DNA of 64,000 nt from an uncultured virus (IMG/VR IMGVR_UViG_3300032268_000759) (lineage: Duplodnaviria > Heunggongvirae > Uroviricota > Caudoviricetes): IMG/VR virus record IMGVR_UViG_3300032268_000759, positions 64,001 to 128,000 of that record; one strand, given 5' to 3'. The notes under the pieces were generated by a model that saw only the letters and a list, made by a program, of their open reading frames with translations, searched no databases and was not told the DNA's origin. Both the position numbers and the translations under genes were made by a program. Shown here one piece after another: positions 30,837-63,638 of the stretch; position 1 is the first letter of the stretch; each line of letters begins with the position of its first letter.

Positions 30837-30840
30837 AATT

Positions 30841-31753: not shown

Positions 31754-31754
31754 T

Positions 31755-32501: not shown

Positions 32502-33218
32502 ATGACAAAAATAGGATACATATACAAAATAACCAGTCCTACTGGTAAAATTTATATTGGGCAAACAACTCGTCTTAATGATAGAATTTCTAAATATAGA
32601 ACATGTAGTTATATTGAAGAACAGAGAATACTTTATAATTCTATAAAAAAACATAGTTGGGATAATCATAATTTCGAAATACTAACAGAAGCACCTCAAG
32701 ACACATTATCTGAATTAGAAATCAAATATATTAAAGAATATAACAGTTTTCATTATGAAAATCCTAATGGAATGAACTTGACTCGAGGTGGAGAAGGAAG
32801 TTTAGGCAGAAAAGACACCCCAGAAACTATACAAAAAAGAATTAATAGTATAAAAGGATCTAAACGCACAGAAGAGACTAAAAGATTAATGAGTTCTTTA
32901 AAAAAAGGAAAACCATCTAACAGTAAAGGAGTTCCATGTTCTGAACAAAGAAAACAAAAAATAGGACAAGCAAACAAAGGAAGAATTCGTGATAAATCAA
33001 TTATAGAAAAGACAAACCAAACTAAACTATTGAATCTTGTCAAAAAGCATGAATGTATACTACAAATAGATAAAACAACTAATGAAGTAATAAAAGAGTG
33101 GGTGATGTTACCTAGATTTATAGGCCAATATTTAGGAGTGTGTGATTCCAACATTATTAAATGTTTAAACAACAAAAAACAACATACTGCTGGATGTATA
33201 TGGAGGTATAAAAAATGA
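32502..33218 (+). mobile_element. Free-standing GIY-YIG homing endonuclease with NUMOD3/NUMOD1-like DNA-binding repeats
   Basis: GYIYKITSPTGKIYIGQT, R..Y, E..YI, NLTRGGEG, basic repeats, C-terminal GCIWRY. Confidence 0.88.
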
Positions 33219-43593: not shown

Positions 43594-46446
43594 ATGAATA
43601 TAATAGGAGAAGGTTTTCATGAAAATATAATAACAGAGATTGATAGGAGACATAGAATCCATGGTTATAGAGCTAATCAAGGTATTAACTTTAATGAGTT
43701 TAGTGGTACTGTACCTAAAGTACTAGATTACTTAAATTCTAGAACAGGTTGGGTGAAAATGATATCATCAGTTGATATCAAAGATATCAATAACATTAAC
43801 TCTCCAGGCATTAAAGATCTAAGATTAGGTGGACCTGAATTAGCTAAAAAATTTATACTATTTAATGGTACAGGTGAATTAGGAAATTATAACTCTAGAG
43901 GAGGAGTAATGAATAAAGATTATGATACTGTTAATAATAAATCTGTTAATAATATATTAGCTCCAGGAAAAGCATATGGTATAGGAGATACAAAGTACTT
44001 TGGTCAATCACCTATGATGGGTATAACCTCAGTAAATGTTAAAACTGAAACTAGAGGTAGTTTAAAAACATCCACAATAGGAATTAAAGCTTGGAATAAG
44101 GTTCAATTTGATATTATTGACAATTTATATTTAAGATTAGGATATAATGTTTTATTAGAATGGGGTTATTCTCATTATTTTAAAGACAACAATTTAACTC
44201 AATTAGAATCTAATGATATTACACTTGAAACAGAATATTTTAGTGGAAAAAATTACTATAATTTATTAAATTTAGTTCAAGAAAAACGAATTAAATCATA
44301 TGGTAATTATGATGCATTATTAGGTAGAGTAGTTAATTTTAACTGGTCATTTAATACTGATGGTAGTTATGATATTGTTGTAATATTAAGAAGTCAAGGA
44401 GATGTTATTGAATCTTTAAAAGCAAATGCATTATTAACTCCTAAACCAACATTTAATGAGTTTTTAGCAAATAATGGTGTGAACCCAAACACCATTATAG
44501 GAAATACACCCACAGATAAAATATTAAACAATAAACCAACTCAAGATATAGAAACCATAGATCAATCTACTGAATTAGGTAAATTATATGTTAAATGTAA
44601 AACAATTTTAGAAGCATCTAATAATCCATCTAAAGCAGGATGTAAAGTTGATGTTTATAATTTAGGTGATAAGGATATAATGCGACAAGAGTTTAAAGAT
44701 CTTGGTAAACCTTTATATTACATTCGTTTAGGTTCATTATTTAAATGGATAGAAGAAGACTTAGTTCCCAAACTAAAATTAGATGTTGACTACTCTCCTA
44801 TTATTAAATTTGATTATAATACAGAAAATAATTTAATATACACACTATCATCAGATTATTCTTGGAGTTCAGACCCAACAACATGTTTAGTTAAAGGTAA
44901 TGTAGTTTTAAATGAAAAATATTACACTATAGCTAATGAAGCAGCTGATTTCAGAAAAGAAATAGCTGGCTCACAAGCTGGTCAAATAATGAATATTTAT
45001 TTAAATTTTGATTCTTTATTAAGTATATTTAATAGTAAAAATAGTGAAGGTAAAGTTACCTTAATTAAATTTTTACAAATGATATGTACTTCTATAAATT
45101 CATCTTTAGGTAATATTAATTCATTAGAACCTGCTGTAGATGAAACTAGTAATAAAATTATTATAATAGATCAAAATACTATTCCAAATAGAGATGGTAT
45201 TATCAAATTAGTATCACCCCAATCTAATACATCATTAGCAACATTTGAATTATTTGGGTATAATTTTAGTAATACAGGCTCAGTAAAAGGTAATTTTGTT
45301 CAAGATTTTTCATTAAAAACTAGTGTTACTCCACAGTTAGCAAGTATGATTACTATTGGAGCTACATCTCAAGGATTTGTTGTAGGAGAAGATGCTACAG
45401 CTTTATCAAGAATAAATAAAGGTTTAGAAGATAGGATTTCACCATATAAAGTAGAAGCAAATTACTCTTTTTTTAATACAACTCAATCATTAGAAACAAC
45501 ATATGCTAGATTTACTTCTCAAGCTAATGAATTAGCTAATTATATATCAATGTCATTTTCAATTGATAACAAAATACCTACTTTATCTAAAGTCTTAATA
45601 GAAGATATTAAAAATACATTACGTAATACTATTGAATTAGGAGAAGCATATTTTTCTATATCTCAATCTATAAGTAATAACATTTACAACTCTTCTAATA
45701 CTAATGGTTTTTTACCATTTAATTTATCTTTAACTATTGATGGATTATCTGGAATAAAAGTATATCAAAAGTTTACAGTAAATAATGATTACTTACCAAC
45801 TAATTATCCACAATCATTAGAATTTATTGTTACATCTATTAATAATACTATTCAAGATAATAAATGGACAACTCAAATTGAATCTTTAGCTTTACCTAAA
45901 GTTACTTCACAGGCTCAATTAAATAGAGGAACATTACCTAAATTAAATATAATTAGCTCTCTACAAACATCAAGTTCTACAGATACTACTAATAATTTAT
46001 TTACTTTAAATACTGATACTTTTAATAGATCTTCTTCAATTCAAGAGACTATAAGCTTTTTTAAAGGTAAAGGTCTTACTGCTCCACAAACAGCTGGAAT
46101 TATTGGTAACTTATTACAAGAATCAGGATTAACTCTTAATAAAAAACAAGATAATGGAGGCCCAGCATATGGTATAGCTCAGTGGGAACCACCAAGAAGA
46201 ACTGAATTAGAAAAAACTCCTGGATATAATTTAGTTTTGATATCTCAATTAGAATTTATTTGGAAAGAATTCAATTCAACAGAAAGAAAAGCTTTAACTA
46301 AATTAAAAGAAACCACTACAGCAGCAGATGCAGCTGATAAATTTGAAAAATACTTTGAACGTAGTGGCAAACCTCAATCTAAAAACAGAATAGGTTATGC
46401 TAATGATATATTAAATAAAATAAACTTAGGCAAATATACTTGGTAA
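43594..46446 (+). CDS. Baseplate hub protein with C-terminal tail lysozyme domain
   Basis: AGIIGNLLQESG, YGIAQW, QLEFIWKE, FEKYFER, RIGYA. Confidence 0.75.
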   Translation: MNIIGEGFHENIITEIDRRHRIHGYRANQGINFNEFSGTVPKVLDYLNSRTGWVKMISSVDIKDINNINSPGIKDLRLGGPELAKKFILFNGTGELGNYNSRGGVMNKDYDTVNNKSVNNILAPGKAYGIGDTKYFGQSPMMGITSVNVKTETRGSLKTSTIGIKAWNKVQFDIIDNLYLRLGYNVLLEWGYSHYFKDNNLTQLESNDITLETEYFSGKNYYNLLNLVQEKRIKSYGNYDALLGRVVNFNWSFNTDGSYDIVVILRSQGDVIESLKANALLTPKPTFNEFLANNGVNPNTIIGNTPTDKILNNKPTQDIETIDQSTELGKLYVKCKTILEASNNPSKAGCKVDVYNLGDKDIMRQEFKDLGKPLYYIRLGSLFKWIEEDLVPKLKLDVDYSPIIKFDYNTENNLIYTLSSDYSWSSDPTTCLVKGNVVLNEKYYTIANEAADFRKEIAGSQAGQIMNIYLNFDSLLSIFNSKNSEGKVTLIKFLQMICTSINSSLGNINSLEPAVDETSNKIIIIDQNTIPNRDGIIKLVSPQSNTSLATFELFGYNFSNTGSVKGNFVQDFSLKTSVTPQLASMITIGATSQGFVVGEDATALSRINKGLEDRISPYKVEANYSFFNTTQSLETTYARFTSQANELANYISMSFSIDNKIPTLSKVLIEDIKNTLRNTIELGEAYFSISQSISNNIYNSSNTNGFLPFNLSLTIDGLSGIKVYQKFTVNNDYLPTNYPQSLEFIVTSINNTIQDNKWTTQIESLALPKVTSQAQLNRGTLPKLNIISSLQTSSSTDTTNNLFTLNTDTFNRSSSIQETISFFKGKGLTAPQTAGIIGNLLQESGLTLNKKQDNGGPAYGIAQWEPPRRTELEKTPGYNLVLISQLEFIWKEFNSTERKALTKLKETTTAADAADKFEKYFERSGKPQSKNRIGYANDILNKINLGKYTW

Positions 46447-46448
46447 AT

Positions 46449-47048
46449 ATGTATTATCCAAAATCTCAAATAGTAACAAATAAATATACTAATGGACAAG
46501 AATTTGTATTAATTAGTAATAATCAAGAATATATTGGTTATTATTGGGAGACATCTGATAGTAAATTTTACACAGGCAAAACTCCTAATGATATTAATGT
46601 TGTTGAACTAAAAAAATTCACCACAACTGATCCATTATTATTATCTAATCAAAATGTTGTTTCTTATAATAATATATTATCTAATGACACATATAATATT
46701 CTTAAACAAGTAGATAACAAAAAAGTATTACTCACACCAATCTACTATCAATCACAACCCACCCAACAAGACTATCAAATAGGTGAATTTAGGAGATATT
46801 TTGTCAAAAAAATAAATGAAATACTTTATATTGAAGTTAGTAAAGATACATTTGAAAATATAATAAATAGAAACCCACAATGGTTATATCAATATTACAC
46901 AGCATTTAATATACCTTGGACAATCTCAGGAGATGAATCTACTATTGCTCAAACAAATAAACGTATTGTTGGTATAACTATGCAACGTCTTGATTTACCT
47001 AAATTTAATTTATATTTACGAGATGATTATACAAAATTTTATAAGTAG
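46449..47048 (+). CDS. Hypothetical protein (baseplate region)
   Basis: Start moved to ATG 46449. Confidence 0.65.
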   Translation: MYYPKSQIVTNKYTNGQEFVLISNNQEYIGYYWETSDSKFYTGKTPNDINVVELKKFTTTDPLLLSNQNVVSYNNILSNDTYNILKQVDNKKVLLTPIYYQSQPTQQDYQIGEFRRYFVKKINEILYIEVSKDTFENIINRNPQWLYQYYTAFNIPWTISGDESTIAQTNKRIVGITMQRLDLPKFNLYLRDDYTKFYK

Positions 47049-47114: not shown

Positions 47115-48377
47115 ATGTTTTGGCTAATAGAAAATAATACACAACTTAAAGAGTTTTACAATAAAGGATACAAAGAAGTATTTATTGAACCAATTCAACT
47201 TCATGATTATATTCATCCTAAATTAACTGATATATCACTATTATATATTAGACCAACAAAAGGAAGAAAAGGATTCATTATAAGTATTAATCATAGTGAA
47301 GCAACATCTGTTAAGAAATCAACAGTATACAATATGTTAAAAACATTTGATACAGTATACATTCGCAATCAAAAAACATGTTTATACCACTTTCAATTAA
47401 CTAATCTTGTTGATATTTCATTTAATACACCATTATTACCTGAAGTAACAACATCAGCCCATACATTTTTATATACAAATAACTCTAATAAGTTAGATAT
47501 AAATAAAATTATACCAATAGTTAAACATTATGAAAAATATGAAAGCATTTATAAACAAGTTAAAGATTACTGTGAAGAGAAAAATAAGTTCTATAGCAAA
47601 ATATCTAAAGTATTTTACCTCCTTGAAAACTCAGGAATTAATATTAATGAGCAAGTTTTTAACAAATACTTTGATCTTAACCATCCAGAATACAATATTT
47701 ATAATTCCCGAATATATACCAATTATAATCTCCATACTACAACGGGACGCCCCTCTAACACTTTTAACACTATTAATTTTGCTGCCTTAGTCAAAGATAA
47801 TGGGTGCCGCAAGACATTTATACCAAAAAATCATACATTAATAGAAATTGATATTAGTGCTTACCATCCTACATTAGCAGCACAGTTAATTAATCACCAA
47901 TCAGATGACATATATTCTGAATTTGCTGAAGTAGCACAAGTAGAGTTAGCTCAAGCAAAAGAATTAATGTTCCGACAATTATATGGAGGAATAATGGATG
48001 AGTACAAAGAATGGGTGTATTTTAAAAAGATACAATCATATATAGATAAGTTGTGGAATCAGTGGAAAACCAATGGTTATATTGAATGTCCCATATCAAA
48101 CCACATGTTCCATAAAGACCGATTAGATAACATTAACCCAAATAAATTATTCAATTATGTGCTCCAAAATATGGAAACATCTAATAATGTTAACATATTG
48201 CGAGATATATTAAAAATATTACGAGATAAAAATACAAAATTGATATTATATACTTATGACGCGTTTTTATTTGATGTAGATAATAATGAAATAGGTGTGA
48301 TAGATGAAATAAAAACAATATTTACCAAATATAAATTAAAAACTAAAAATAAAACCGGAATAAGTTATGACTTTTAA
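47115..48377 (+). CDS. Compact, divergent family-A DNA polymerase
   Basis: TTTGRPS, motif A EIDISAYHP, motif B K...F...YG, NY..Q, motif C YTYDAFLFD. Confidence 0.75.
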   Translation: MFWLIENNTQLKEFYNKGYKEVFIEPIQLHDYIHPKLTDISLLYIRPTKGRKGFIISINHSEATSVKKSTVYNMLKTFDTVYIRNQKTCLYHFQLTNLVDISFNTPLLPEVTTSAHTFLYTNNSNKLDINKIIPIVKHYEKYESIYKQVKDYCEEKNKFYSKISKVFYLLENSGININEQVFNKYFDLNHPEYNIYNSRIYTNYNLHTTTGRPSNTFNTINFAALVKDNGCRKTFIPKNHTLIEIDISAYHPTLAAQLINHQSDDIYSEFAEVAQVELAQAKELMFRQLYGGIMDEYKEWVYFKKIQSYIDKLWNQWKTNGYIECPISNHMFHKDRLDNINPNKLFNYVLQNMETSNNVNILRDILKILRDKNTKLILYTYDAFLFDVDNNEIGVIDEIKTIFTKYKLKTKNKTGISYDF

Positions 48378-48819
48378 TGATACTTTTAATACGTATATGA
48401 TGGACTATGATACAAGTCCTTTTGATGGTATGCTAAACAATAAGTTATTTTGCACATTTACTCAACTAGAAAATCTAGACAGTTTGATAGACAATCTAAA
48501 TAATACATATTCAATTATGTATAATAAGATATTTGTCTTATATGTTAAGAATAATGATGAGTATGTTTGTACATATAATGTAGACCAAGGAAATGTAAAT
48601 GCCATCCCAGATAATACTATATTAGTCCATCGCAAAAAAGAATTTAATGTTTTATACACTATTAACTCATTAAATGAATTAATAAAATCACTTAATGGAG
48701 GAGTAGTTGATCCAGACTATCGCATTAACTGGCAACATTATCAAAATACAATATTACTAACTCAACAAGGAGAACTAAAGCAACTAAAAACAAAAATCCA
48801 CAAAATAGTAAATCTATAG
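48367..48819 (+). CDS. Hypothetical protein
   Basis: NKLFCTF, VHRKK...LYTINSLN; start uncertain. Confidence 0.65.
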   Translation: MTFNDTFNTYMMDYDTSPFDGMLNNKLFCTFTQLENLDSLIDNLNNTYSIMYNKIFVLYVKNNDEYVCTYNVDQGNVNAIPDNTILVHRKKEFNVLYTINSLNELIKSLNGGVVDPDYRINWQHYQNTILLTQQGELKQLKTKIHKIVNL

Positions 48820-48892: not shown

Positions 48893-49732
48893 ATGGATAT
48901 AAATGCAATCAAAGCCCGTCTAGGTGCTTTACAACAATCAGGTAACTCTGGTAAAAGAGAAAAGATAGACTACACTAAAGTCTACTGGAAACCAAAACAA
49001 GAAGGTAAGTATCAAATTAGATTTGTTCCTTCTAAACTCGATCCTCGCAACCCATTTAGAGAGATCTTTGTACATTATGGTTTTTCAAAATTCCCCATCT
49101 TCTCATTAACTAATTGGGGTGAAAAAGATCCAATCGTTGAATTTGCAAAACAACTTCGTAAAACTGATGACAAAGAAAATTGGTCATTAGCTAAAAAACT
49201 TGATCCGAAATTGAGAGTTTACGCTCCAGTTATTGTTCGTGGTGAAGAAGACAAAGGAGTTCGTTTATGGGAGTTTGGCAAGGAAATCTATTTACAATTA
49301 TTAGGTATTGCTGAAGATGAAGATTATGGTGATTACACAGACATTAATGATGGTCGTGATTTCACTGTAGAAGCAGTTATGGGAGACATTGGTGGTCGTA
49401 GAGGTTTAAAATCATCAATTCGTGTTAAACCAAAAACTACACCATTAAGTACTAATAAAGCTGAAATTGAACGTTTATTAAGCGAACAACCAGATGTATT
49501 AGAAATCCAACGTAAAATGGAATTTGAAGCTATGAAAGAAGTATTACAAAACTGGTTAACACCTCCAACAGAGGAAGAATCACCAGAAGTAATCACAGCT
49601 GAAGATGAAGATGACTCAGACATGCCTTGGGAAAAGGAAGAAAAACCAAAAACACACACAACTAAGCCAATAACTAAACCTGCAAGTAAAGCAGATGCGT
49701 TTGATGCTGTGTTTAATGATGATGAGGAATAA
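48893..49732 (+). CDS. Single-stranded DNA-binding protein (T4 gp32-like)
   Basis: YWKP...IRFVP, WEFGKEIY, D...GRDF, acidic C-terminal tail. Confidence 0.8.
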   Translation: MDINAIKARLGALQQSGNSGKREKIDYTKVYWKPKQEGKYQIRFVPSKLDPRNPFREIFVHYGFSKFPIFSLTNWGEKDPIVEFAKQLRKTDDKENWSLAKKLDPKLRVYAPVIVRGEEDKGVRLWEFGKEIYLQLLGIAEDEDYGDYTDINDGRDFTVEAVMGDIGGRRGLKSSIRVKPKTTPLSTNKAEIERLLSEQPDVLEIQRKMEFEAMKEVLQNWLTPPTEEESPEVITAEDEDDSDMPWEKEEKPKTHTTKPITKPASKADAFDAVFNDDEE

Positions 49733-49738
49733 TATCTT

Positions 49739-50821
49739 ATGGCCAAGAAAAAAACATCGTTAACAGAAGCTGTTTCTGGTGAACTTAAAGCTAATTTCAA
49801 TTTAGATAAGTTTAAAGAGAAGAAGTTGTTAAACAACACTGTAAAGTTTAAAGAACAAAGATGGATTCCATTTTCAGAAGCATTACAGGATTCAGTCTCT
49901 ATCCAAGGCGCTCCTATGGGCCATATCACCTTATTAAGAGGTCATAGTAATACCGGTAAAACAACAGCTATGTTAGAATTAGCTATTAGCGCTCAGAAAA
50001 TGGGCATTTTACCGGTATTTATTATTACCGAAATGAAATGGTCATGGGAACATGCTAAACAAATGGGATTTGTACTTGAAGATGTAGTAGATGAATCAAC
50101 AGGTGAAGTTGTCAATCATAAAGGATTTTTCTTATATGCTGATAGATCACAGTTAGGCACTATTGAAGATGTAGCAGGTTTTATAGCTGATTTATTAGAT
50201 GAACAACGTAAAGGTAATTTACCATATGATTTATGTTTCTTCTGGGATTCAATCGGTTCTATACCTTGTAAAATGAGTGTTGAAGCAAATAAAAATAATC
50301 CAATGTGGAATGCAGGTGCAATGTCACAACAGTTTGGTAATTTTATTAATCAACGTTTTCCATTATCAAGAAAAGAAAATTCACCATATACTAATTCAAT
50401 GGTAGCGATTAATAAAATCTGGGTAGCACCAGCTGAAAATGTTATGAGCCAACCTAAGATGAAGATGAAAAATGGTGAAACTATGTTCTTAGATGCTTCA
50501 ATTGTAATAACATTTGGTAATATCACTAATAGTGGTACAAGTAAAATGAAAGCCCAAAAAGATGGTAAAGAAGTAGAATTTGCAGTTAGAACAAAAGTAG
50601 CAGTTGATAAAAATCATGTTACTGGTTTACAAACAAAGAGTGTAGTAATAGCTACAATTCATGGTTTTATTCAAGAAGAGGATATTAACAACTATAAAAA
50701 ACATCATTCACATGAGTGGATTGGTATTTTAGGTGCTGGAGCAAGTGAAGCGAATTTAGTTGAAGATACGTCAGAATGGAATGAAAGTAAAGATCACCCA
50801 ATTTTAATAGAAGAAGAATAA
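49739..50821 (+). CDS. RecA/UvsX-like recombinase
   Basis: G.ITLLRGHSNTGKTT, FFWDSIGS, VAIN, KNH. Confidence 0.8.
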   Translation: MAKKKTSLTEAVSGELKANFNLDKFKEKKLLNNTVKFKEQRWIPFSEALQDSVSIQGAPMGHITLLRGHSNTGKTTAMLELAISAQKMGILPVFIITEMKWSWEHAKQMGFVLEDVVDESTGEVVNHKGFFLYADRSQLGTIEDVAGFIADLLDEQRKGNLPYDLCFFWDSIGSIPCKMSVEANKNNPMWNAGAMSQQFGNFINQRFPLSRKENSPYTNSMVAINKIWVAPAENVMSQPKMKMKNGETMFLDASIVITFGNITNSGTSKMKAQKDGKEVEFAVRTKVAVDKNHVTGLQTKSVVIATIHGFIQEEDINNYKKHHSHEWIGILGAGASEANLVEDTSEWNESKDHPILIEEE

Positions 50822-50826
50822 AAGTT

Positions 50827-51885
50827 ATGAATAGAGATTTATTAAAGATCCTAGATGGTATATCTAAGGATGATGACACCCGCGTCCCAGAAAAAGTAGA
50901 TCCTATTTTAAAAAAATATGATAGAATATTAATTATAGATGGTTTAAATCTATTTTTAAGAAACTTTGCAGTAATGAATGTTGTTAATGAACAAGGAGTT
51001 CATATCGGAGGCTTGGGAGGAACTCTTAGATCACTAGGATATTTAATAAATACTATTAAACCAACATCAGCCTATATCGTCTTTGACGGTATGGGCTCTT
51101 CTACTAACCGTAAAAATCTTTTACCTGAATATAAATCAAATCGCAATACAGGTAAAATTATGAATTGGGAAGCATTTGATGATATTGATGATGAGGATGA
51201 TGCTAAAGTAAATCAAATTAGCCGCTTAATCCACTATCTAAAATGTTTACCTGTCAAAACCATATCTATGGACAAAGTTGAAGCAGATGATATTATAGCG
51301 CATTTAAGTGATCAGTTATCAACTAAGCAAAATTCAAAAGTATATATTGTTTCATCAGATAAAGATTTCTTACAAAAAGTAAATCATAATATAACTGTAT
51401 TTAGACCAATAGAGAAAGAGTTTTTAACACCAGAGAAGGTTAAGGCTAAATTTGAAATCCCACCTGAGAATTTTATATTATATAAGACACTATTAGGAGA
51501 TAGTTCAGATAAGATACCTGGTATTAAGGGATTAGGCCCAGGTAAGTTATTTAAATTATTTCCTGAATTAAAAACACGAATATTAACATTAGATGATATA
51601 TTTGATATTTGTGAAGAAAAGCATAAAGAACATATTATATATTCAAGAATATTATTTGAAACAGAATCTGTTCTAACAAACTATAAATTGATGGACTTAT
51701 CTAAACCTATGATTGATGATAAAGAAAAACAATTAATAGAAGATTTAATTACTGCATCAACTTCAAAACTACAAGTAGACGCATTCATGAGATTATACAA
51801 TGAAGATGGTTTAAAACATTTAATTAAAGACACATTGTTTTGGTTAAGAGACACATTCAAAGTATTAAATAGTTTTAATAAATAA
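50827..51885 (+). CDS. 5'-3' exonuclease (PolI N-terminal/T4 RNase H family)
   Basis: IIDG.N, VFDG, YKSNR, EADD, SSDKDFLQ, GDSSDKIPGIKGLG. Confidence 0.92.
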   Translation: MNRDLLKILDGISKDDDTRVPEKVDPILKKYDRILIIDGLNLFLRNFAVMNVVNEQGVHIGGLGGTLRSLGYLINTIKPTSAYIVFDGMGSSTNRKNLLPEYKSNRNTGKIMNWEAFDDIDDEDDAKVNQISRLIHYLKCLPVKTISMDKVEADDIIAHLSDQLSTKQNSKVYIVSSDKDFLQKVNHNITVFRPIEKEFLTPEKVKAKFEIPPENFILYKTLLGDSSDKIPGIKGLGPGKLFKLFPELKTRILTLDDIFDICEEKHKEHIIYSRILFETESVLTNYKLMDLSKPMIDDKEKQLIEDLITASTSKLQVDAFMRLYNEDGLKHLIKDTLFWLRDTFKVLNSFNK

Positions 51886-51886
51886 T

Positions 51887-51934
51887 ATGACCCTTAATAC
51901 CTTGACTAATATTTATATTAAAAAGACATGGTAG
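51887..51934 (+). pseudogene. Remnant of the helicase 5' end (MTLNTL...)
   Basis: ATG right after the exonuclease stop encodes MTLN, the same as the helicase start at 52613. Confidence 0.5.
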
Positions 51935-52584
51935 TTTATATAACAACAAACTTAATTAATAATAAAAAATATATAGGTAAAGACATTAATAATAATCCTA
52001 ATTATCTAGGTAGTGGAGCCTATATAAAAAAAGCTATTAAAAAATATGGTAAAGAAAATTTTAAAAAAGAAATTCTAGAATATTGCTCTTCAAAAGATGA
52101 GTTATGGCAAAAAGAAGAGTGGTGGTTAAATTTCTATGATGTAGAGAGTAATTCTTTATTTTATAATAAAACAAATAAAGCTTTTGGAAACTCAGGTCAA
52201 ACTATAGAAGGTAAAGAAAAAATAAGTAAAGCTAGAAAAGGATGGAAACCAACTGATGAAATGAAGAAAAAAATGTCAGAAGGAAAAAAAGGACATAAAA
52301 TGTACACTGATGAGTGGAGAACTAAAATAAGTAATTCACTTAAAGGAAAACATAAATCTGAAGAATTTAAAAAACATCAAAGTGAAATTACAAAAGGTAA
52401 TACAAATAGAAGAAAAATGGTTTTACAATATGATAAACAAGGTGATTTTATTAAAGAGTGGGAAAGTGCATTTAAAGCAGCGTTATCCTTAAATAAAAAA
52501 ACAGGAGCAGCTATTACAGAAGTATGTAATGGTAAAGGTAAAAGAAAAAGTATTTATGGATATATCTGGAAATACAAGAATTAA
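51928..52584 (+). mobile_element. Free-standing GIY-YIG (Seg-like) homing endonuclease
   Basis: VVYITTNLINNKKYIGK, YLGSG, KYGKENFKKEILE, FYN, NUMOD3-like repeats, YGYIWKY. Confidence 0.88.
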
Positions 52585-52612: not shown

Positions 52613-53953
52613 TTGACATTAAATAACATTTCCCAATATGGTATTGGATTCCAGATAAAAGTATTATCTGCTTTATTAACAGATAAAAAGTTTCTATTAG
52701 ATATCAATGATGTTTTAAGTGATGATTATTTTGATAACTCAGCACATAAATGGATTGTAAATGAAACTTTAAAATATTTTACAAAATATCATACAACACC
52801 TACATTAGAAGTATTAAAAACAGAATTAAAGAAAATAGATAATGAGGTATTACAAGTATCTGTTAAAGAACAATTACGTGAAGCATACCAATCAGCAGAT
52901 GATGATTTAGAATATATTGAAACTGAATTTAGTAGTTTTTGTAAAAATCAACAGTTAAAAAAAGCATTATTAAGTAGTGTTGATTTATTAAAAGCAGGAG
53001 ATTATGATTCAATCAGAGGAATGATTGATAACGCATTAAAAGCAGGTCAAGATAAAGCTTTAGGTCATGAATATAATAAGGATGTTGAGTCTAGATATAG
53101 AGAAAATCACCGTTTAGTTGTACCCACACCATGGCCTATTTTAAATGAATCATTACAAGGTGGATTAGGTGGAGGTGATTTTGGATTAATATTTGGTAAC
53201 CCAGGAGGAGGTAAATCATGGGCATTAGTAGCATTAGGTGGTACAGCTGTTAAATTAGGATATAATGTAGTTCATTACACTTTAGAGTTAGGAGAAGATT
53301 ATGTGGGTAGAAGATATGATGCGTTCTTTACCAATATATCAGTTAGTGATATAGGTAATCATAAAACACAGATTGAACAAATGACATCTGAATTACCAGG
53401 TAATTTAATCATAAGAGAATATTCACCAGGTCAAGCCACAATATCTACTATAGAATCACATATCCAAAAATGTGTTAGCTCAGGATTTAAACCAGATTTA
53501 ATTATTATTGATTATGTTGACTTACTTTCATCAAAAAGAAGGACTATAGATAAAAAACAAGAAATAGATGATATTTATATTAGCACCAAGGGACTTGCTA
53601 AACAACTTAATTTACCAGTATGGTCAGTTTCACAAGTAAATCGTTCTGGTGCAAAGGATAATGTTATTGAAGGTGATAAAGCGGCCGGAAGCTATGATAA
53701 AATGATGGTGACCGATTTCGCTTTATCTTTATCTAGAAAAAAAGAAGATAAAGTAAATAACACAGGAAGATTCCATGTTATGAAAAATAGATATGGAGCA
53801 GATGGTATGACATATTTGGCCTCAGTAGATACATCTACAGGTCATATAGAAATCCAATCAGAATATGATGATGATGCTCCAACAAATAAAATAAGTGATG
53901 AAGAATTGGATAAAAAAGCATTAGCTAAAAAGTTTTATGAATTTAATTTATAA
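52613..53953 (+). CDS. DnaB/gp41-like replicative helicase
   Basis: TTG start; GNPGGGKS, YTLEL, IIIDYVDL, SQVNR, KNRYG. Confidence 0.92.
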   Translation: MTLNNISQYGIGFQIKVLSALLTDKKFLLDINDVLSDDYFDNSAHKWIVNETLKYFTKYHTTPTLEVLKTELKKIDNEVLQVSVKEQLREAYQSADDDLEYIETEFSSFCKNQQLKKALLSSVDLLKAGDYDSIRGMIDNALKAGQDKALGHEYNKDVESRYRENHRLVVPTPWPILNESLQGGLGGGDFGLIFGNPGGGKSWALVALGGTAVKLGYNVVHYTLELGEDYVGRRYDAFFTNISVSDIGNHKTQIEQMTSELPGNLIIREYSPGQATISTIESHIQKCVSSGFKPDLIIIDYVDLLSSKRRTIDKKQEIDDIYISTKGLAKQLNLPVWSVSQVNRSGAKDNVIEGDKAAGSYDKMMVTDFALSLSRKKEDKVNNTGRFHVMKNRYGADGMTYLASVDTSTGHIEIQSEYDDDAPTNKISDEELDKKALAKKFYEFNL

Positions 53954-57749: not shown

Positions 57750-58238
57750 ATGAATAAAGATATAAAAGAAGTACTTGATTATCTAGGTTATAAAATAAAT
57801 GTGGATGTTCCGGCTAAACCACCACATAGAGGTAATAATAAGTTTTATTGGTGGAGAAGATATCCAATTCATAAAGAATTACATAAATACCAACCAATTG
57901 AAGACAAATTAGCTAATGGTGATTTTAGTTATTCACCTTATTGGACTCAAGTTCAATATGAACAATATTGGTTAGCAGAAGCCATATCTAAATCAAAATT
58001 AGAAAAGGAATGGTGTGTTGAAAAAGAAAGAGAAGTCAGAACTATATACGCCAAACGTATAAATAAACTATCTGAAGATGCTATGAAAGATGAGTTTGAA
58101 CGTTTACAATCATTTAAACTTGACTTAAAACGTCAATATGGAGGTAAACAAGATGATGTTAGTGAGTTTGTAGATAAGTTTGAAGGCAGTTTGGAAGAAT
58201 GCGTTTTATTTTATAAATTATCAAAAAAGTTACAATAA
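57750..58238 (+). CDS. Hypothetical protein
   Basis: 162-aa ORF coupled to the next gene. Confidence 0.65.
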   Translation: MNKDIKEVLDYLGYKINVDVPAKPPHRGNNKFYWWRRYPIHKELHKYQPIEDKLANGDFSYSPYWTQVQYEQYWLAEAISKSKLEKEWCVEKEREVRTIYAKRINKLSEDAMKDEFERLQSFKLDLKRQYGGKQDDVSEFVDKFEGSLEECVLFYKLSKKLQ

Positions 58239-59026
58239 TGAAAATATCACATGAAGTACCACTCTCATTACTTGAGAAAAGTTTAATGTTTAATGATTAT
58301 CAGTACGTATTACCTCATTTAATAGACAAATATAATGAGTATAAACTATTTATGTTGAGGTATAGAGCTCAAGAAAACTCATTTATAATAATGGATAATG
58401 GTCTTTTTGAGGGAGTAACTCATACAGCTGAGGATTTAGTTGAGAAAATGCATTTAGTTAAACCTGATATTTTTATAACACCTGATGATTGGAATAATTC
58501 TCATGCTACATATAAAAATGCAAAATACTGGATAAATACTCTAAAGTCACAACTACCATCAACTACAAAATTAATGGTTGTATTACAAGGTAAAACAATA
58601 GAAGAGATAACTAATTTATATAATAAATGTATTGATTTAGGTTTTAAACACTTTGCATTTAATCATTCTTCAGAAGCATACCAACGAATATTTAATCATC
58701 CTAATAAGTTAGTTAACCAAATGATGGGTAGAATTGAGGTAATAAATTCATTAAGAAGACAAGGTCATATTTTAGATAATCATTATATTCATTTACTTGG
58801 AGCATCACTACCTCAAGAGTTTATTTATTACAAAGGTATGGAATGGATTAATTCAGTTGATACTTCATCTCCAATTATAAATGGTGCTTTAAATATACCT
58901 TATGAAGAGTATGGTTTGTTAACTAAGCCAACAAATAAAATTGAAGAGTTCTTTGAAGATAGTTTAGAAGAACAAATAGGAAATATTACATTTAATATAA
59001 ATAAGTTTAAAGAATATACTTCATAG
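58238..59026 (+). CDS. TGT-fold DpdA-like 7-deazaguanine DNA transglycosylase
   Basis: IMDNG, PDD, VLQG, IHLLG, SVDTSS motifs in TGT order; adjacent to the que genes. Confidence 0.65.
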   Translation: MKISHEVPLSLLEKSLMFNDYQYVLPHLIDKYNEYKLFMLRYRAQENSFIIMDNGLFEGVTHTAEDLVEKMHLVKPDIFITPDDWNNSHATYKNAKYWINTLKSQLPSTTKLMVVLQGKTIEEITNLYNKCIDLGFKHFAFNHSSEAYQRIFNHPNKLVNQMMGRIEVINSLRRQGHILDNHYIHLLGASLPQEFIYYKGMEWINSVDTSSPIINGALNIPYEEYGLLTKPTNKIEEFFEDSLEEQIGNITFNINKFKEYTS

Positions 59027-59042
59027 ATATATTAAAATATAT

Positions 59043-59115
59043 GCTCCGTTAGTGAAGCGGTCTAACACGCTACCCTTTCACGGTAGAGGCACGGGTTCGA
59101 TTCCCGTACGGAGTA
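59043..59115 (+). tRNA. tRNA-Glu (TTC)
   Basis: Acceptor GCTCCGT/ACGGAGT, anticodon arm CTACC-CTTTCAC-GGTAG, T arm ACGGG-TTCGATT-CCCGT; CCA not encoded. Confidence 0.93.
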
Positions 59116-59133
59116 CAAATATTTTTAAAAATT

Positions 59134-59169
59134 AAAGCTTGGCCAACCAGGCTTTTTTTGTTATATTAA
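59134..59169 (+). terminator. Terminator after tRNA overlapping a Bacteroidota-type promoter
   Basis: AAAGCTTGG-CCAA-CCAGGCTTT plus T-tract; CTTG(59138)-N20-TATATTAA. Confidence 0.75.
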
Positions 59170-59188
59170 TATTATAATAAAATAAGTT

Positions 59189-59407
59189 ATGACACAAACA
59201 CAATACATTTCACTTTACGATTATTTAGGTAAAGCAGCTGGACCTGAATTAGGTAAACAAGTAGCAGATTATGCTAAATTAAAAAAATTTCCTGTTCAAT
59301 TAAGGGAGGTTAATACAAAAACTTATAAAGGTAAAGTAATGCTTTATACTAAAGAGTTTTTAACAGAGTTTTTTCATGCTAAAAATATTTTTACATATGC
59401 AAAATAA
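59189..59407 (+). CDS. Hypothetical protein
   Basis: 72-aa ORF; SLYDYLGKAAG...Y.GKVMLY. Confidence 0.65.
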   Translation: MTQTQYISLYDYLGKAAGPELGKQVADYAKLKKFPVQLREVNTKTYKGKVMLYTKEFLTEFFHAKNIFTYAK

Positions 59408-60233
59408 AAAACATGCGGTTATAAGTTTAAGTGGAGGTATGGATTCCTCTACTTTATTATTACATTTATTAAATGAAGGTTATGATTGTACTTGTTTAAG
59501 TTTTGATTATGGTCAAAAACATAAAGTTGAATTAGAAAGAGCAGTTGAATTAGTGAAGTACATTAATGAATATTTTGTTGTAGATGAAGAAAGTAAAACA
59601 TTTGATTATCCATTTAACATTACTCATCAAATCATCAAATTAGATGGTTTAAGTCAATTACTAAACTCATCATTAGTTGAAGGTGGACATGAAGTGCCTG
59701 AAGGTCATTATGAAAATGAAAACATGAAGGCAACTGTGGTACCTAATAGGAATATGATATTTAGTTCAATAGTACAATCAGTAGCACTATCAATAGCTAC
59801 TAAACATAATACTGAATGTGTTATTGCTTTAGGTTTACATAGTGGTGACCATGCTGTTTATCCTGATACAACTGAACAATTTAGACAATCATGTTTAGAA
59901 ACATTCAAAATAGGAAATTGGGAATCACATTTAGTAGATTATTATGCTCCATATATGGAGACAAATAAATTTGGTATATTAGAAGATGGAGCCAAATGTT
60001 GTGAGTTCTTATGTTTAGATTTTGATGAAGTATATAAACGTACTAATACATCTTACAAACCATTTCCAAGTGGAAACAGTGATTACAAATCAGCATCATC
60101 AGTAGAACGTATTGAAGCATTTATTAAATTAGGCCGCCCAGATTCAGTTCAATATGAAGACGAATCAGGTCCTGTAAGTTGGGAAGTAGCTAAAGCACAC
60201 GTAGAAACAGTTTTAAACAATCATAATAAATAA
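59397..60233 (+). CDS. queC: 7-cyano-7-deazaguanine synthase
   Basis: SLSGGMDSS, FDYGQKH..E, VVPNRNMIF, YPD; start moved to ATG 59397. Confidence 0.92.
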   Translation: MQNKKHAVISLSGGMDSSTLLLHLLNEGYDCTCLSFDYGQKHKVELERAVELVKYINEYFVVDEESKTFDYPFNITHQIIKLDGLSQLLNSSLVEGGHEVPEGHYENENMKATVVPNRNMIFSSIVQSVALSIATKHNTECVIALGLHSGDHAVYPDTTEQFRQSCLETFKIGNWESHLVDYYAPYMETNKFGILEDGAKCCEFLCLDFDEVYKRTNTSYKPFPSGNSDYKSASSVERIEAFIKLGRPDSVQYEDESGPVSWEVAKAHVETVLNNHNK

Positions 60234-60234
60234 T

Positions 60235-60438
60235 ATGAAAAATCAATTAGAATTAACAAGAAGTTTTGGAGGAATAATATCAAATGATATTAAGAATTTC
60301 CAAAGTAAAGAACATATGCGTTCAGAACAAAAACATCTTAGAGCATACAAACAAGGTGTAAAATGGTTTACTAATGGAACCAAAGATGAAAAAACAAATG
60401 AAACTGTATATTTTAAAGTAGAGGAGAAGTGGAATTAA
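60235..60438 (+). CDS. Hypothetical protein
   Basis: 67-aa packed ORF. Confidence 0.6.
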   Translation: MKNQLELTRSFGGIISNDIKNFQSKEHMRSEQKHLRAYKQGVKWFTNGTKDEKTNETVYFKVEEKWN

Positions 60439-60439
60439 T

Positions 60440-60688
60440 ATGAAAACATTATTTTATTTTAGTGCACCATGGTGTGTACCATGCCAATCATTAGGTCCTA
60501 TTATGGATCAAGTAGCATTACGAGGTATTCCTGTAGAAAAAGTTAACATAGATTATGAAACAGATAGAACAGTAGCAGCAAATGTCACAAGTGTACCTAC
60601 AGTAGTATTAGCTCAAAATGGAGTTGAAATTAAACGATTTACAGGTGCTAAATCATTACAACAAGTATTAGACTTTTACAATAATTAA
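60440..60688 (+). CDS. Thioredoxin
   Basis: FSAPWCVPC, SVPT, RFTG. Confidence 0.9.
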   Translation: MKTLFYFSAPWCVPCQSLGPIMDQVALRGIPVEKVNIDYETDRTVAANVTSVPTVVLAQNGVEIKRFTGAKSLQQVLDFYNN

Positions 60689-60689
60689 T

Positions 60690-61151
60690 ATGAGTAAATT
60701 TCAATCAACAAAAGTATTTGATGGATACAGTTGTGTATTCCGTCAATGGAAAGCAGAAGGTACTCATTGTAGATTTCTACATGGTTATGGAGTATCATTT
60801 AGAGTATGGTTTGAAGGTGAATTAGATGAACGTAATTGGGTATGGGATTTTGGAGGCATGAAGCGTGCTAAAGGTACTATTGATGATATGAATCCTAAGC
60901 AGTGGATGGACTATATGTTTGACCATACTGTTATTATAGCAGATGATGATCCTTGTATTGGACTATTTAAGAAAATGCATGTTGAAGATCTTATACAGTT
61001 AAGAATAATACCAGCAGTAGGAGCAGAACAATTTGCAAAATATATCTATGAAAAATTAAATGTATTTGTTCAAGAAGAAACAGATGGTAGAGTTAAAGTA
61101 GCAAGAGTAGAATTTATGGAACATAGTAAAAATACAGCTATATATGAGTAA
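60690..61151 (+). CDS. queD: 6-carboxy-5,6,7,8-tetrahydropterin synthase
   Basis: HCRFLHGY, VWDFG, FDH, AE, V.F.E....A. Confidence 0.85.
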   Translation: MSKFQSTKVFDGYSCVFRQWKAEGTHCRFLHGYGVSFRVWFEGELDERNWVWDFGGMKRAKGTIDDMNPKQWMDYMFDHTVIIADDDPCIGLFKKMHVEDLIQLRIIPAVGAEQFAKYIYEKLNVFVQEETDGRVKVARVEFMEHSKNTAIYE

Positions 61152-61962
61152 AATAAGCACAGACAAGTTACTAATTAGTAGTGACTTTTATTCAGTTCAA
61201 GGAGAAGGAATTTCATCTGGTGTACCTTCATACTTCGTTCGTTTAGGTGTTTGTAATCTAACTTGTGGTATGAGTAGAAAATTCACTAACAACTTAGCTA
61301 AAGAACAAACATTACAAGATGGTGAAATATTTAAAGGTGATTTAGAATTAGAAGGTAAAGCAACTTGGACTTGTGACTCAACATCTCAATGGTTATGGAG
61401 AGGTGAAGATAAAGATTTTCAATATCTAATTGATCAATGGAAAGAACAAGGTATCTATGAAGATATTTTAGATGGTACTATCCATATTATTTGGACTGGT
61501 GGGGAGCCTACAATTAAACAACATCAAGAAGCTATTGCTAATTTTCATGAGTATTGGGGTGGATTTAACTCTTATGATGAAATAGAAACTAATGGGACAA
61601 TAGTAATTGATAGACCATTATTTAGATTACTTGATCAAATTAACTGTTCACCTAAATTATCTAACTCAGGTTTAGACGCTAAACAACGTATTAACCCAGA
61701 TGCTATCAAACGTATAATGGAACATAAGAATTATACATTTAAGTTTGTTATATCAAATGAAGATGATGTTAGTGAAGTATTCCGTGACTTTGTAATACCA
61801 TTTAATATACCACTTAAAAATGTAGTTTGTATGCCTGGTTTAGATAGTCAAACTAATTTTCATGAGCGCACTCAGTTTGTATTAGAGATGGCTAAGAAAT
61901 ATAAATTTAGAGGCTTAACAAGATTACATATCTCAGCTTGGGATAAAACATTAAACGTATAA
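61144..61962 (+). CDS. queE: 7-carboxy-7-deazaguanine synthase (radical SAM)
   Basis: FYSVQGEG, FVRL..CNL.C, TGGEP, EIETNGT, SPK, KFV, RLH. Confidence 0.9.
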   Translation: MSKISTDKLLISSDFYSVQGEGISSGVPSYFVRLGVCNLTCGMSRKFTNNLAKEQTLQDGEIFKGDLELEGKATWTCDSTSQWLWRGEDKDFQYLIDQWKEQGIYEDILDGTIHIIWTGGEPTIKQHQEAIANFHEYWGGFNSYDEIETNGTIVIDRPLFRLLDQINCSPKLSNSGLDAKQRINPDAIKRIMEHKNYTFKFVISNEDDVSEVFRDFVIPFNIPLKNVVCMPGLDSQTNFHERTQFVLEMAKKYKFRGLTRLHISAWDKTLNV

Positions 61963-61965
61963 ATT

Positions 61966-62214
61966 ATGAAAACTCGTATCCATGTCAACCAACATCACAT
62001 AAGATCTAATAAAACTAAAGGTACTAATCTTCCTGTTATAACAGTTAAACAAGGTAAGAAAAATACCTATTGTAATGAGGTTGAAATATTAGGTCCAAGT
62101 AAGATAATTTATGGTGGAAATGGATGTGATGCAAAACCTCTATTAGGATGTGGAGCAAGAGTAGTAATAGAAACAGAAGCAGAAGTAATAATAAAACCTA
62201 TCAATATTTATTAA
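61966..62214 (+). CDS. Hypothetical phage protein
   Basis: IHVNQH.I...PL..CGARV.IET. Confidence 0.65.
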   Translation: MKTRIHVNQHHIRSNKTKGTNLPVITVKQGKKNTYCNEVEILGPSKIIYGGNGCDAKPLLGCGARVVIETEAEVIIKPINIY

Positions 62215-62215
62215 C

Positions 62216-62464
62216 ATGAAACATATATTATATTTTTACAAAAATGGTTGTGGACCATGTGATGAGATAAAATCAGTTATAGATAAATTATCTGAAACTA
62301 ATAAAATAGATCGTATTAATATTAATGAGAGAGATACATTAGCTGATAAACTAAATATAATGTATACTCCAACTTTAGCAATTATTGATTCTGAAGCTAA
62401 AAGTATGGTTAAATATGAAGGTTCTAAAAAAATAAAACAGGTTATAAATGAAAATCTTATATAA
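62216..62464 (+). CDS. Thioredoxin-like protein
   Basis: CGPC and TPT motifs. Confidence 0.8.
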   Translation: MKHILYFYKNGCGPCDEIKSVIDKLSETNKIDRININERDTLADKLNIMYTPTLAIIDSEAKSMVKYEGSKKIKQVINENLI

Positions 62465-62972
62465 TAAAGAACAAATACAAACAGCTGTAAATAAAATAGC
62501 TTTAGAAATCCATAAAAGGCATTATAACGATCCAAACCCACCAGTAATGATCTGTGTGTTAAATGGAGCATTTATGTTTTTTACAGACTTAGTTAAAGCA
62601 ATAAATATTGATTGTGAAATTGATTTTATGAGAGCTAAATCATATGATGATCAACTTCAAACTGAAGTAGTTATAACTAAAGACATTGAAACTGATATAA
62701 CAGGCAGACATGTTTATCTAATAGATGATATTTTAGATTCAGGTAATACTTTAAGACATATTATAAAACATTATACTACAAATCCAAGAATATCTCCTGC
62801 TTCAATCACTCCAGTAGTGTTATTTAAAAAATGGTCAAGTGAACTTGATAATTGTTTATATGGCATAGAATTAATTAATGAATCCTGGTTATGTGGTTAT
62901 GGATTAGATGGACCTAATGGTTTAATGAGAAATAGAGATCTTATATTTGGCTTTGAGCCAGAAATTGATTAA
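62448..62972 (+). CDS. hpt: Hypoxanthine/guanine phosphoribosyltransferase-like
   Basis: CVLNGAFMFFTDL, KSY, LIDDILDSGNT PRPP loop, GYGLD. Confidence 0.88.
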   Translation: MKILYNKEQIQTAVNKIALEIHKRHYNDPNPPVMICVLNGAFMFFTDLVKAINIDCEIDFMRAKSYDDQLQTEVVITKDIETDITGRHVYLIDDILDSGNTLRHIIKHYTTNPRISPASITPVVLFKKWSSELDNCLYGIELINESWLCGYGLDGPNGLMRNRDLIFGFEPEID

Positions 62973-62977
62973 ATTAA
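62946..62977 (+). promoter_or_regulatory. Bacteroidota-type promoter upstream of folE
   Basis: TTTG-N20-TAAATTAA. Confidence 0.5.
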
Positions 62978-62999
62978 TATTATAAATAAAGTTATAAAA

Positions 63000-63635: not shown

Positions 63636-63638
63636 GAT

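Follow-up and report, generated by a model that had tools for sequence, protein, structure and literature searches.

A compact divPolA1-type family-A DNA polymerase with an altered nucleotide pocket and a genetically linked small protein in an uncultured tailed phage

What is a family-A DNA polymerase of only 420 amino acids (aa), with departures from three hallmark motifs of its family, doing in a tailed phage that also encodes a conventional DNA polymerase? The question is raised by an open reading frame (ORF) at positions 47115..48377 of a 64,000-nucleotide stretch of the uncultured caudovirus IMGVR_UViG_3300032268_000759 (positions 64,001 to 128,000 of that IMG/VR record; this whole stretch is called the window below, and coordinates refer to it unless the genome is named). 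By combining structure prediction, profile searches, and an analysis of gene neighborhoods, we place the protein in the recently described divPolA1 family, find that several residues of its predicted nucleotide pocket are replaced in most or all members of that family, and show that its gene is linked almost without exception to one for a small protein, orf150. The most likely role of the enzyme is that of an accessory Pol I-like polymerase, of which orf150 is probably the second subunit.

Assignment of the 420-aa protein to divPolA1

The ORF is exactly the one reported in an earlier note on this DNA, which was made from the letters alone, and it has an ATG start. Direct scans gave no usable match: the PHROG and NCBIfam libraries returned nothing, Pfam returned only sub-threshold Imm30 and Terpene_synth matches, and a scan of the whole 154,840-bp genome with PF00476 had 0 matches. 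Calling the protein a family-A polymerase therefore needed deeper tools.

47115..48377, plus strand: divPolA1-type compact family-A DNA polymerase, 420 aa, identified by an AlphaFold2 (AF2) model, Foldseek, VIA-align, and profile comparison with Klenow

The alignment-based AF2 model is very confident (pLDDT 93.5, pTM 0.89), and its top Foldseek matches are all family-A polymerases, led by the Klenow/Pol I structure 8oo6_A (E = 2.7e-18, TMq 0.77) and followed by apicoplast apPOL, Pol theta, and Mycobacterium smegmatis Pol1. The best match in VIA-align is the large fragment of Bst Pol I (4dqi_A; Z = 26.0, rmsd 3.8 A, 389 aligned residues), with residues 1-420 of the model spanning 300-874 of the chain, from the exonuclease-like lobe through the C terminus. 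Sequence profiles point the same way. PF00476 is matched weakly by 10 of 41 close relatives (best 5e-7), a 137-sequence profile matches Klenow with an E value of 5.9e-10 where a shallower 41-sequence profile searched against PDB is not significant (E = 0.23), and hhalign to E. coli Pol I yields an E value of 3.3e-4 and a probability of 38% over 204 columns (columns 200-412 against residues 649-906). No significant hhalign alignment to T7 gp5 was obtained (probability 0.1%). The modeled fold is that of family A, Klenow-like, with an exonuclease-like lobe, thumb, palm, and fingers.

A tblastn search of 50,697 phage records matched only six: four records of three Flavobacterium "immuto" phages, a 484-kb uncultured phage (LR756508), and Microcystis phage Mel-JY01. 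The match to gp001, encoded by Flavobacterium phage vB_FspM_immuto and annotated as "DNA polymerase family A," extends over 98% of the protein at 37% identity (E = 7e-77; reciprocal search, 8e-82). This gp001 is the type example of the group that Yutin et al. 2024 (Virol J 21:200, PMC11348598) named divPolA1. The main text of that paper describes divPolA1 in 14 phages of 155-190 kb, each also carrying a regular polymerase from one of families A, B, and C, and reports conserved palm residues, a truncated thumb, an exonuclease lobe inactivated through replacement of all three catalytic Asp residues, conserved replication genes downstream of divPolA1, and GroEL/ES genes beside the regular polymerase. 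In the window phage we found homology to the immuto protein, an additional regular polymerase, the downstream replication genes, the GroES/GroEL slot, and a truncated thumb; by these sequence comparisons, the 420-aa polymerase is a member of the published divPolA1 family. The earlier note had proposed a distinct polymerase clade. Its distinctness is borne out, since the altered motifs hold in 137 family representatives and in two distant phages, but the clade is not new, having been named in 2024.

The likeness to immuto extends to full-length homology, size class (441 versus 420 aa), the downstream gene order, the presence of a regular polymerase elsewhere next to GroES/GroEL, the truncated thumb, and the apparently noncanonical exonuclease lobe. 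The two differ in that the regular polymerase of immuto is a 778-aa PolA, whereas the window phage has a family-B enzyme with a clamp loader, and in that immuto has Tyr at the R754 position and His at the H734-region position, where the window protein has Leu and Tyr. The family is far larger than the 14 genomes given in the main text of PMC11348598, and this abundance is a new observation: the family comprises 3,889 proteins at an E value of <=1e-3 among 5,937 candidates, forming 1,041 clusters at 50% identity, and tblastn confirmed divPolA1 on at least 585 stretches in IMG/VR. All 120 family proteins among the matches listed are 419-441 aa long.

A rebuilt nucleotide pocket on a reduced scaffold

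Residue equivalences were derived from two independent alignments that agree with each other, an hhalign alignment to E. coli Pol I and the 137-sequence hidden Markov model (HMM) against Klenow. The family alignment consists of 137 rows, the window protein and 136 of the 150 listed representatives of clusters at 50% identity; the 14 fragments or partial sequences left out are P0132, P0143, P0152, P0153, P0174, P0185, P0196, P0197, P0218, P0221, P0234, P0242, P0256, and P0259. The blocks that carry the active-site residues are as follows.

47724..47819, plus strand: pre-motif-A block, residues 204-235 (YNLHTTTGRPSNTFNTINFAALVKDNGCRKTF), equivalent to Pol I T664-R690; it includes R212 (= R668) and R232 (= R690)
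47835..47888, plus strand: motif A, residues 241-258, which reads EIDISAYHP; catalytic D246 = D705, and H251 replaces the steric-gate E710
47934..47993, plus strand: motif B (O-helix), residues 274-293; K282 = K758, F286 = F762, Y290 = Y766, and L278 stands at the R754 position
48234..48284, plus strand: motif C, residues 374-390; Y381-D382-A383 stand at H881-D882-E883, and D387 = E887

Between motifs B and C, N347 and Q351 further correspond to N845 and Q849. Much of the catalytic framework is retained across the family: D246, D382, K282, R212, and E354 are invariant (137/137), and P213, N221, and Q351 (136/137 each), D387 (134/137), Y290 (132/137), and F286 (125/137) are nearly so. Such conservation among 137 representatives at <=50% identity is indicative of strong purifying selection on the catalytic residues.

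The positions that depart from Pol I do so just as consistently. Position 251 (the E710 site) is His in 133 of the 137 rows, Gln in 3, and Phe in 1, and is never Glu; position 381 (the H881 site) is Tyr in 134; and position 383 (the E883 site) is occupied by Ser (96 rows), Ala (39), or Gly (2), with Asp or Glu in none. Position 278 (the R754 site) is more variable, Tyr (81 rows) being followed by Ile (18), Arg (13), and Leu (6). The canonical Glu/Arg/Glu combination is found in 0 of 137 rows, and His/Tyr/Ser is the most frequent state; the two distant phages, Mel-JY01 and the 484-kb phage LR756508, keep the His, Tyr, and Ala motif states. At the level of these alignments, the rebuilt nucleotide pocket is a signature of the whole family. 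It is new relative to the published description, in that the terms "steric," "histidine," "motif C," "processivity," and "deazaguanine" are all absent from the main text of PMC11348598. The earlier note had read the same three departures from the window protein (His for the steric-gate Glu in motif A, no Arg four residues before the Lys in motif B, and YDA instead of HDE in motif C) and had allowed that a structural alignment could restore the canonical residues. Both alignments keep the changes, which are no alignment artefact.

The scaffold around this pocket is about 180 residues shorter than the bacterial Pol I large fragment. Where Klenow has some 89 residues of thumb tip (chain 234-322, roughly Pol I 558-646), the profile has 4 positions, and the deletion is flanked by an "IExNGI" block before it and a "TGRPS" block after it (profile 199 to 204 = Klenow chain 233 to 323). 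The fingers are also shortened, the distance from K758 to Q849 being 91 residues in Pol I versus 69 in the window polymerase, and the hhalign alignment makes the thumb-terminal helix two residues shorter than that of E. coli Pol I. The N-terminal lobe (N-lobe) is retained as a whole, in a vestigial form.

47115-47504, plus strand: vestigial exonuclease-like N-lobe, about residues 1-130, apparently without the DEDD signature and with conserved residues kept

Strand 1 of this lobe has no conserved DxE in the 137-row alignment (F/Y/I at position 23, variable residues at position 25), and in the hhalign comparison with the Klenow exonuclease region only the "IERNGVKID" block is aligned, so that the exonuclease motifs are not placed by sequence; the earlier note had likewise seen no clear exonuclease motifs in the window protein. 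Other residues of the lobe are well conserved among the 137 rows (H34, 95%; H60, 98%; E/D62, acidic in 137/137; K87, 92%; D100, 87%; N130, 94%), suggesting that it is under selection for something, possibly as a docking surface for orf150.

The overall similarity to the bacterial Pol I large fragments (Klenow, Bst LF, and KlenTaq) thus comprises the fold, the catalytic Asp pair, the O-helix Lys/Phe/Tyr, and the equivalents of R668, N845, and Q849. The divPolA1 proteins differ from them in being shorter, with the thumb tip deleted, the fingers reduced, and E710, R754, H881, and E883 changed; moreover, the 5'-3' exonuclease has a gene of its own here, and a 150-aa protein accompanies the polymerase. 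Bst LF and KlenTaq lack active proofreading, as divPolA1 also appears to do.

The linked protein orf150 and the replication module

The gene directly downstream of the polymerase encodes this 150-aa protein.

48367..48819, plus strand: orf150, conserved 150-aa protein and candidate second subunit, whose start overlaps the polymerase stop by 11 nt

We evaluated the linkage in the 80 best IMG/VR loci, counting orf150 where at least 600 nt of downstream sequence was available. A homologue lies directly downstream of the polymerase in 69 of 71 loci (the exceptions are L052 and L085), and of 72 pairs extracted, 68 have an orf150 start that overlaps the stop of the polymerase or falls within 30 nt of it. 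The reciprocal test, starting from orf150, gave the same picture, with divPolA1 upstream in all 64 loci that have at least 1,400 nt of upstream sequence and in all 11 shorter loci (300-1,399 nt). The linkage reaches the distant phages as well: orf150 is directly downstream of divPolA1 in the cyanophage Mel-JY01 (profile E = 7e-34) and about 1.5 kb downstream in the 484-kb phage LR756508 (profile E = 1e-48). Among relatives, orf150 is the better conserved of the two proteins (57-74% identity versus 39-55% for the polymerase), and it has at least 7,985 homologues, none of them named. This strict linkage is new insofar as the main text of PMC11348598 makes no mention of the pairing.

Library and fold searches gave no informative match for orf150. 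It has no Pfam, PHROG, or NCBIfam family match. Its AF2 model (pLDDT 82.7) has disordered residues 1-23 followed by an alpha/beta domain with beta-alpha-beta-beta topology; the best Foldseek match in PDB has an E value of 0.2, the PDB profile search gave nothing under an E value of 1.9, and the sole match in BFVD is its own uncharacterized orthologue. A wide VIA-align search recovered generic ferredoxin-like domains over residues 22-88 only, with a best Z score of 6.9. A SUKH/SMI1-KNR4 identity (ESM Atlas score 0.92, 151 shared features) was treated as a chance match because the number of shared features is below the 170 typical of true family members. We also set aside the fusions as evidence. 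Only six longer proteins contain orf150, all of them singletons, among them P0392, which joins the C-terminal half of the polymerase and orf150 in one frame, P0394, which joins orf150 to the single-strand DNA-binding protein (SSB), and P0391, a chimera; these are too rare against at least 7,985 separate forms and may be frame or assembly errors. Prediction of a complex of the polymerase with orf150 scored 0.00 in both runs, whose controls were not folded, and counts as no evidence either way.

Downstream of the pair lies a set of replication and recombination genes whose positions are likewise maintained across the loci, and upstream of it lies orf202.

46440..47048, plus strand: orf202, conserved ORF with no Pfam, PHROG, or NCBIfam match, directly upstream of the polymerase in 60/65 loci
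48893..49732, plus strand: gp32-like SSB (PF08804, 4.7e-12; phrog_1192, 1.7e-14), syntenic in 58/58 loci
49739..50821, plus strand: UvsX/RecA-like recombinase (phrog_97, 2.7e-19; PF00154, 9.2e-6, below the Pfam cutoff), syntenic in 54/54 loci
50827..51885, plus strand: stand-alone 5'-3' exonuclease/flap endonuclease (PF02739, 1.8e-32; PF01367, 5.3e-8; phrog_107, 2.6e-37), syntenic in 47/48 loci
52613..53953, plus strand: DnaB-like replicative helicase (phrog_19, 6.9e-77), syntenic in 39/39 loci

The gene order is that of immuto, namely, polymerase, small ORF, gp32-like SSB, UvsX/RecA, 5'-3' exonuclease, DnaB, and ribonucleotide reductase, and the separate 5'-3' exonuclease gene is the one that the earlier note had pointed out. 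The upstream orf202 overlaps the end of a 950-aa tail-lysozyme gene and for this reason may belong to a structural operon rather than to the polymerase module. A GIY-YIG/SegE-like homing endonuclease gene at 51928-52584, between the flap endonuclease and DnaB, looks recently inserted because it is absent from this place in nearly all related loci; further genes of this type are found at 32502-33218 and at L004:14307-14765.

Division of labor with the regular polymerase

The earlier note had remarked that the window has no family-B polymerase with a clamp. No PolB is indeed present there, but the phage-wide absence that this implied is not supported. Searching the rest of the genome, as that note had advised, uncovered an 876-aa PolB at genome 130,901-133,528 (PF00136, 8.5e-29; phrog_262, 7e-141), about 2.9 kb past the end of the window and 19 kb downstream of divPolA1. 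This PolB has the ExoI and ExoII motifs along with polymerase motifs A, B, and C and is followed by GroES (Cpn10, 3.3e-24), GroEL (Cpn60, 1.5e-73), and the two subunits of the clamp loader; elsewhere, the genome encodes a Toprim primase (phrog_47, 6.3e-39) and an ATP-dependent ligase. The full order at genome 130,901-138,800 (L006:3901-11431) is PolB, a 244-aa ORF without matches, GroES, GroEL, and the large and small clamp-loader subunits, the 244-aa ORF being a sliding-clamp candidate by position only. Directly upstream of PolB is an 891-aa ORF with no match in any library (L006:1206-3878).

A regular polymerase was found in all six whole or nearly whole divPolA1 genomes tested: PolB in the window phage and two related contigs (G000, G001, and G002), the 778-aa PolA in immuto, PolB in Mel-JY01, and both PolB and PolIII-alpha in LR756508. 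Since the slot before GroES/GroEL holds PolA in immuto and PolB in the window phage, the regular polymerase has evidently been swapped while divPolA1 and its module stayed fixed. In several phages the PolB frame is itself interrupted: it is split into two frames (596 + 301 aa) in G001, contains one TGA in G005 and two TAA in G003 (these three contigs are those behind loci L010, L018, and L025), and is in three pieces in LR756508. An intron, an intein, or a homing-endonuclease insertion may account for the split genes.

The following mechanism would fit these observations. The divPolA1 protein would act as a compact, template-directed family-A DNA polymerase that retains the two-metal core (D246 and D382), the O-helix residues K282, F286, and Y290, and the presumptive minor-groove readers R212 (= R668) and Q351 (= Q849), and that lacks the thumb tip and, apparently, 3'-5' proofreading. 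Around the incoming nucleotide, four positions appear to be rebuilt, with E710 replaced by His, R754 by Leu (Tyr in most members), H881 by Tyr, and E883 by Ala or Ser. Such an enzyme would carry out short-patch, non-proofread synthesis within the module formed by SSB, the UvsX-like recombinase, the flap endonuclease, and DnaB. Its substrates may be primers or recombination intermediates, which it would extend, and Okazaki gaps, which it could fill in concert with the 5'-3' exonuclease encoded by a separate gene, so that the job of a Pol I would be split between two proteins, with bulk synthesis left to the interchangeable regular polymerase. The co-inherited and presumably translationally coupled orf150 would form a two-protein unit with it and may compensate for the missing thumb tip or bind DNA. 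We consider this reading, an accessory Pol I-like polymerase in a unit with orf150 alongside a regular polymerase that performs bulk synthesis, to have slightly better than even chances. It is favored because divPolA1 lacks the thumb tip and apparently proofreading, while PolB has exonuclease motifs and a clamp loader, and the suggestion of an accessory enzyme in the earlier note gains from the presence of a regular polymerase in every testable genome.

Several points weigh against this reading. The specific role, be it gap filling or primer or D-loop extension, is deduced from the gene neighborhood. T4-type replisomes mature their Okazaki fragments with no second polymerase, which leaves the need for one here unexplained. 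The loss of the E883 and R754 equivalents could mean low or altered activity. As for orf150, it is a candidate second subunit, and the very term divPolA1 is found only in the 2024 paper and its preprint. Finally, the main text of PMC11348598 reads the conserved context as a hint that divPolA1 is central to replication and calls the role of the regular polymerases "less obvious."

A rival reading would make divPolA1 with orf150 the main replicative polymerase, with orf150 serving as a processivity or DNA-clamping subunit in place of the thumb tip and the regular polymerase relegated to a secondary or repair function. The location of divPolA1 in an invariant module with the helicase, SSB, recombinase, and flap endonuclease speaks for it, as do the strong family-wide conservation of the pair and the exchange of the regular polymerase among families A, B, and C, amid chaperonin and nucleotide-modification genes. 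A known parallel is the T7 gene 5 polymerase, a family-A enzyme that owes its processivity to a small separate protein, thioredoxin, bound at its thumb; the likeness to divPolA1 and orf150 is in concept only, as T7 gp5 proofreads actively, its thumb is complete and carries an insertion, and its partner is supplied by the host. Nevertheless, a replicase with no evident proofreading domain would have to copy genomes of 155-484 kb, the PolB has intact exonuclease and polymerase motifs together with the two-subunit clamp loader that is the hallmark of a processive replicase, and divPolA1 is the sole polymerase in none of the six genomes; we thus regard this alternative as improbable. It is more improbable still, to the point of being very hard to uphold, that divPolA1 has no catalytic activity and has become a scaffold of the replisome, structural or DNA-binding. 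R754 and E883 are important in Pol I, as known from Klenow mutagenesis, and the absence of their equivalents could be taken in that sense. However, a Glu after the motif-C Asp is also missing from the single-subunit RNA polymerases, which belong to the same superfamily, and both metal-binding Asp residues, the O-helix Lys, and the R668 equivalent are invariant in 137/137 rows, with Tyr766, Phe762, and Gln849 nearly so; this pattern is what is expected of an active site under selection.

A different possibility is a primase-polymerase of two components, divPolA1 and orf150, by which DNA chains would be initiated de novo for the neighboring helicase. Its model is CCPol-MP of the staphylococcal SCC elements (Bebel et al. 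2020, PMC7581432; Rice 2023, PMC10061031), an N-terminally truncated family-A polymerase that gains DNA primase activity on association with a small ssDNA-binding protein and that is encoded beside a helicase. The architecture is similar here, with a family-A polymerase of reduced N-terminal region immediately before a coupled small protein and a helicase in the module, and CCPol-MP is an experimentally shown precedent, which keeps the idea alive. Rice 2023 also ties the shortening of the thumb-ending helix to room for the initiating triphosphate, in line with the two-residue shortening seen here, and a role in initiation could suit the rebuilt triphosphate and sugar pocket. Yet the genome already has its Toprim primase, neither fold nor sequence searches with the polymerase (Foldseek, VIA-align, and profile) retrieved CCPol or detected any specific link to it, orf150 is predicted to be ferredoxin-like alpha/beta (Z <= 6.9) and not of the OB fold of MP-type partners, which bind the truncated N terminus, and divPolA1 keeps a whole, though vestigial, exonuclease-like lobe. 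Moreover, CCPol keeps the equivalents of E710, the steric-gate Glu, and F762, so that the His251 change is not a CCPol trait. We judge a primase of this type to be rather unlikely.

The remaining alternative concerns substrates: the rebuilt pocket might alter the choice of nucleotide, either toward 7-deazaguanine nucleotides or templates or toward a relaxed or altered sugar selectivity (ribonucleotides or other 2'/3'-modified nucleotides). It is prompted by a 7-deazaguanine DNA-modification cluster that occupies 58238-64000 of the window and continues to genome ~128,110.

58238..59026: DpdA3-type transglycosylase, so typed because it has 35% identity to immuto DpdA and 34% to Campylobacter CP220-group proteins
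59376-60233: QueC
60690-61151: QueD
61144-61962: QueE
62448-62972: phosphoribosyltransferase (PF00156, 1.4e-19), between QueE and FolE
63000-63635: FolE
63639 onward: MazG-like pyrophosphohydrolase

Homologues of QueF and of the formyltransferase DpdN were not found in the genome, from which the expected modified base would stop at preQ0, ADG, or CDG and not reach fdPreQ1. Passages of PMC10516641 report that all G is replaced by fdPreQ1 in immuto DNA, that DpdA3 could not be reconstituted, and that the Campylobacter CP220 group is fully modified. The phosphoribosyltransferase has a counterpart at the same place in the Que cluster of immuto (gp211); such an enzyme would convert a free base to a nucleotide, which is unexpected for a purely postreplicative base exchange.

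The presence of these genes, the complete modification of immuto DNA, the failure to reconstitute DpdA3 activity, and the recovery of QueC in 9 of the 12 long contigs with divPolA1 (the other three are fragments, 28-31% complete) favor a link to the polymerase, and the steric-gate Glu is replaced in all 137 rows, by His in 133. In Pol I, E710 and F762 are described as countering ribonucleotide use. The QueC co-occurrence is not independent, however, as it falls within one closely related clade, and the two systems doubly dissociate: the 14 Campylobacter phage records of the CP220 group have DpdA3 and no divPolA1 match, whereas Mel-JY01 and LR756508 have divPolA1 with orf150, and neither QueC nor DpdA was found in them by a search that detected both in immuto as a positive control. 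Because each system thus occurs without the other, a polymerase dedicated to deazaguanine is largely rejected, and the selectivity for deaza-dGTP entertained in the earlier note is disfavored. With regard to sugars, the 2'-OH would probably still be excluded, since His is the bulkier residue and F286 (= F762) is retained. An altered substrate choice is accordingly unlikely in our estimation.

A bolder proposal goes beyond the accessory role while sharing its two-protein unit: divPolA1 and orf150 may be an obligate heterodimer, an unrecognized two-subunit family-A enzyme whose rebuilt sugar and triphosphate pocket confers an activity that ordinary Pol I lacks, candidates being de novo DNA chain initiation or action as an initiator polymerase that hands over to the replicase of the phage. 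An activity specific to the heterodimer would explain why the pair is retained even as enzymes of families A, B, and C replace one another as the main polymerase. We put this forward as speculative and on balance unlikely.

The remainder of the genome holds several other genes of interest. An ORF at 55-1005 encodes a "polyvalent protein"-type ADP-ribosyltransferase domain (PF18760, 1.2e-8). Three adjacent paralogous ORFs at 30177-32462 (219, 244, and 235 aa) share their matches to PHROGs 24074 and 8510 (virion structural protein) and probably form a small tandem family of fiber or receptor-binding modules. A second RecA/KaiC/DnaB-like P-loop ATPase of 293 aa is encoded at genome ~23,800-24,675 (L003:4797-5675), at a distance from the replication module. 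The phage protein encoded at genome 17,038-17,730 (L002:17038-17730) bears a C-terminal sorting domain for type IX secretion (PF18962, 7.4e-14), which hints at a Bacteroidota host, consistent with the Flavobacterium host of the nearest cultured relative.

The divPolA1 proteins are among the smallest natural family-A polymerases, represented by thousands of metagenomic proteins, and their active site departs from three textbook hallmarks of the family while appearing to be under strong selection. They thereby offer a natural experiment on how far the Glu of the steric gate, the Arg of the O-helix, and the Glu of motif C are needed, and may provide a compact polymerase of unusual substrate tolerance. 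That divPolA1 is so strictly paired with orf150 points to a two-subunit enzyme, and de novo initiation by the pair, if true, would be a third, independent origin of a PolA-based primase. A fixed divPolA1-orf150 pair beside a main polymerase that can be swapped bears on how labor is divided in phage replisomes.

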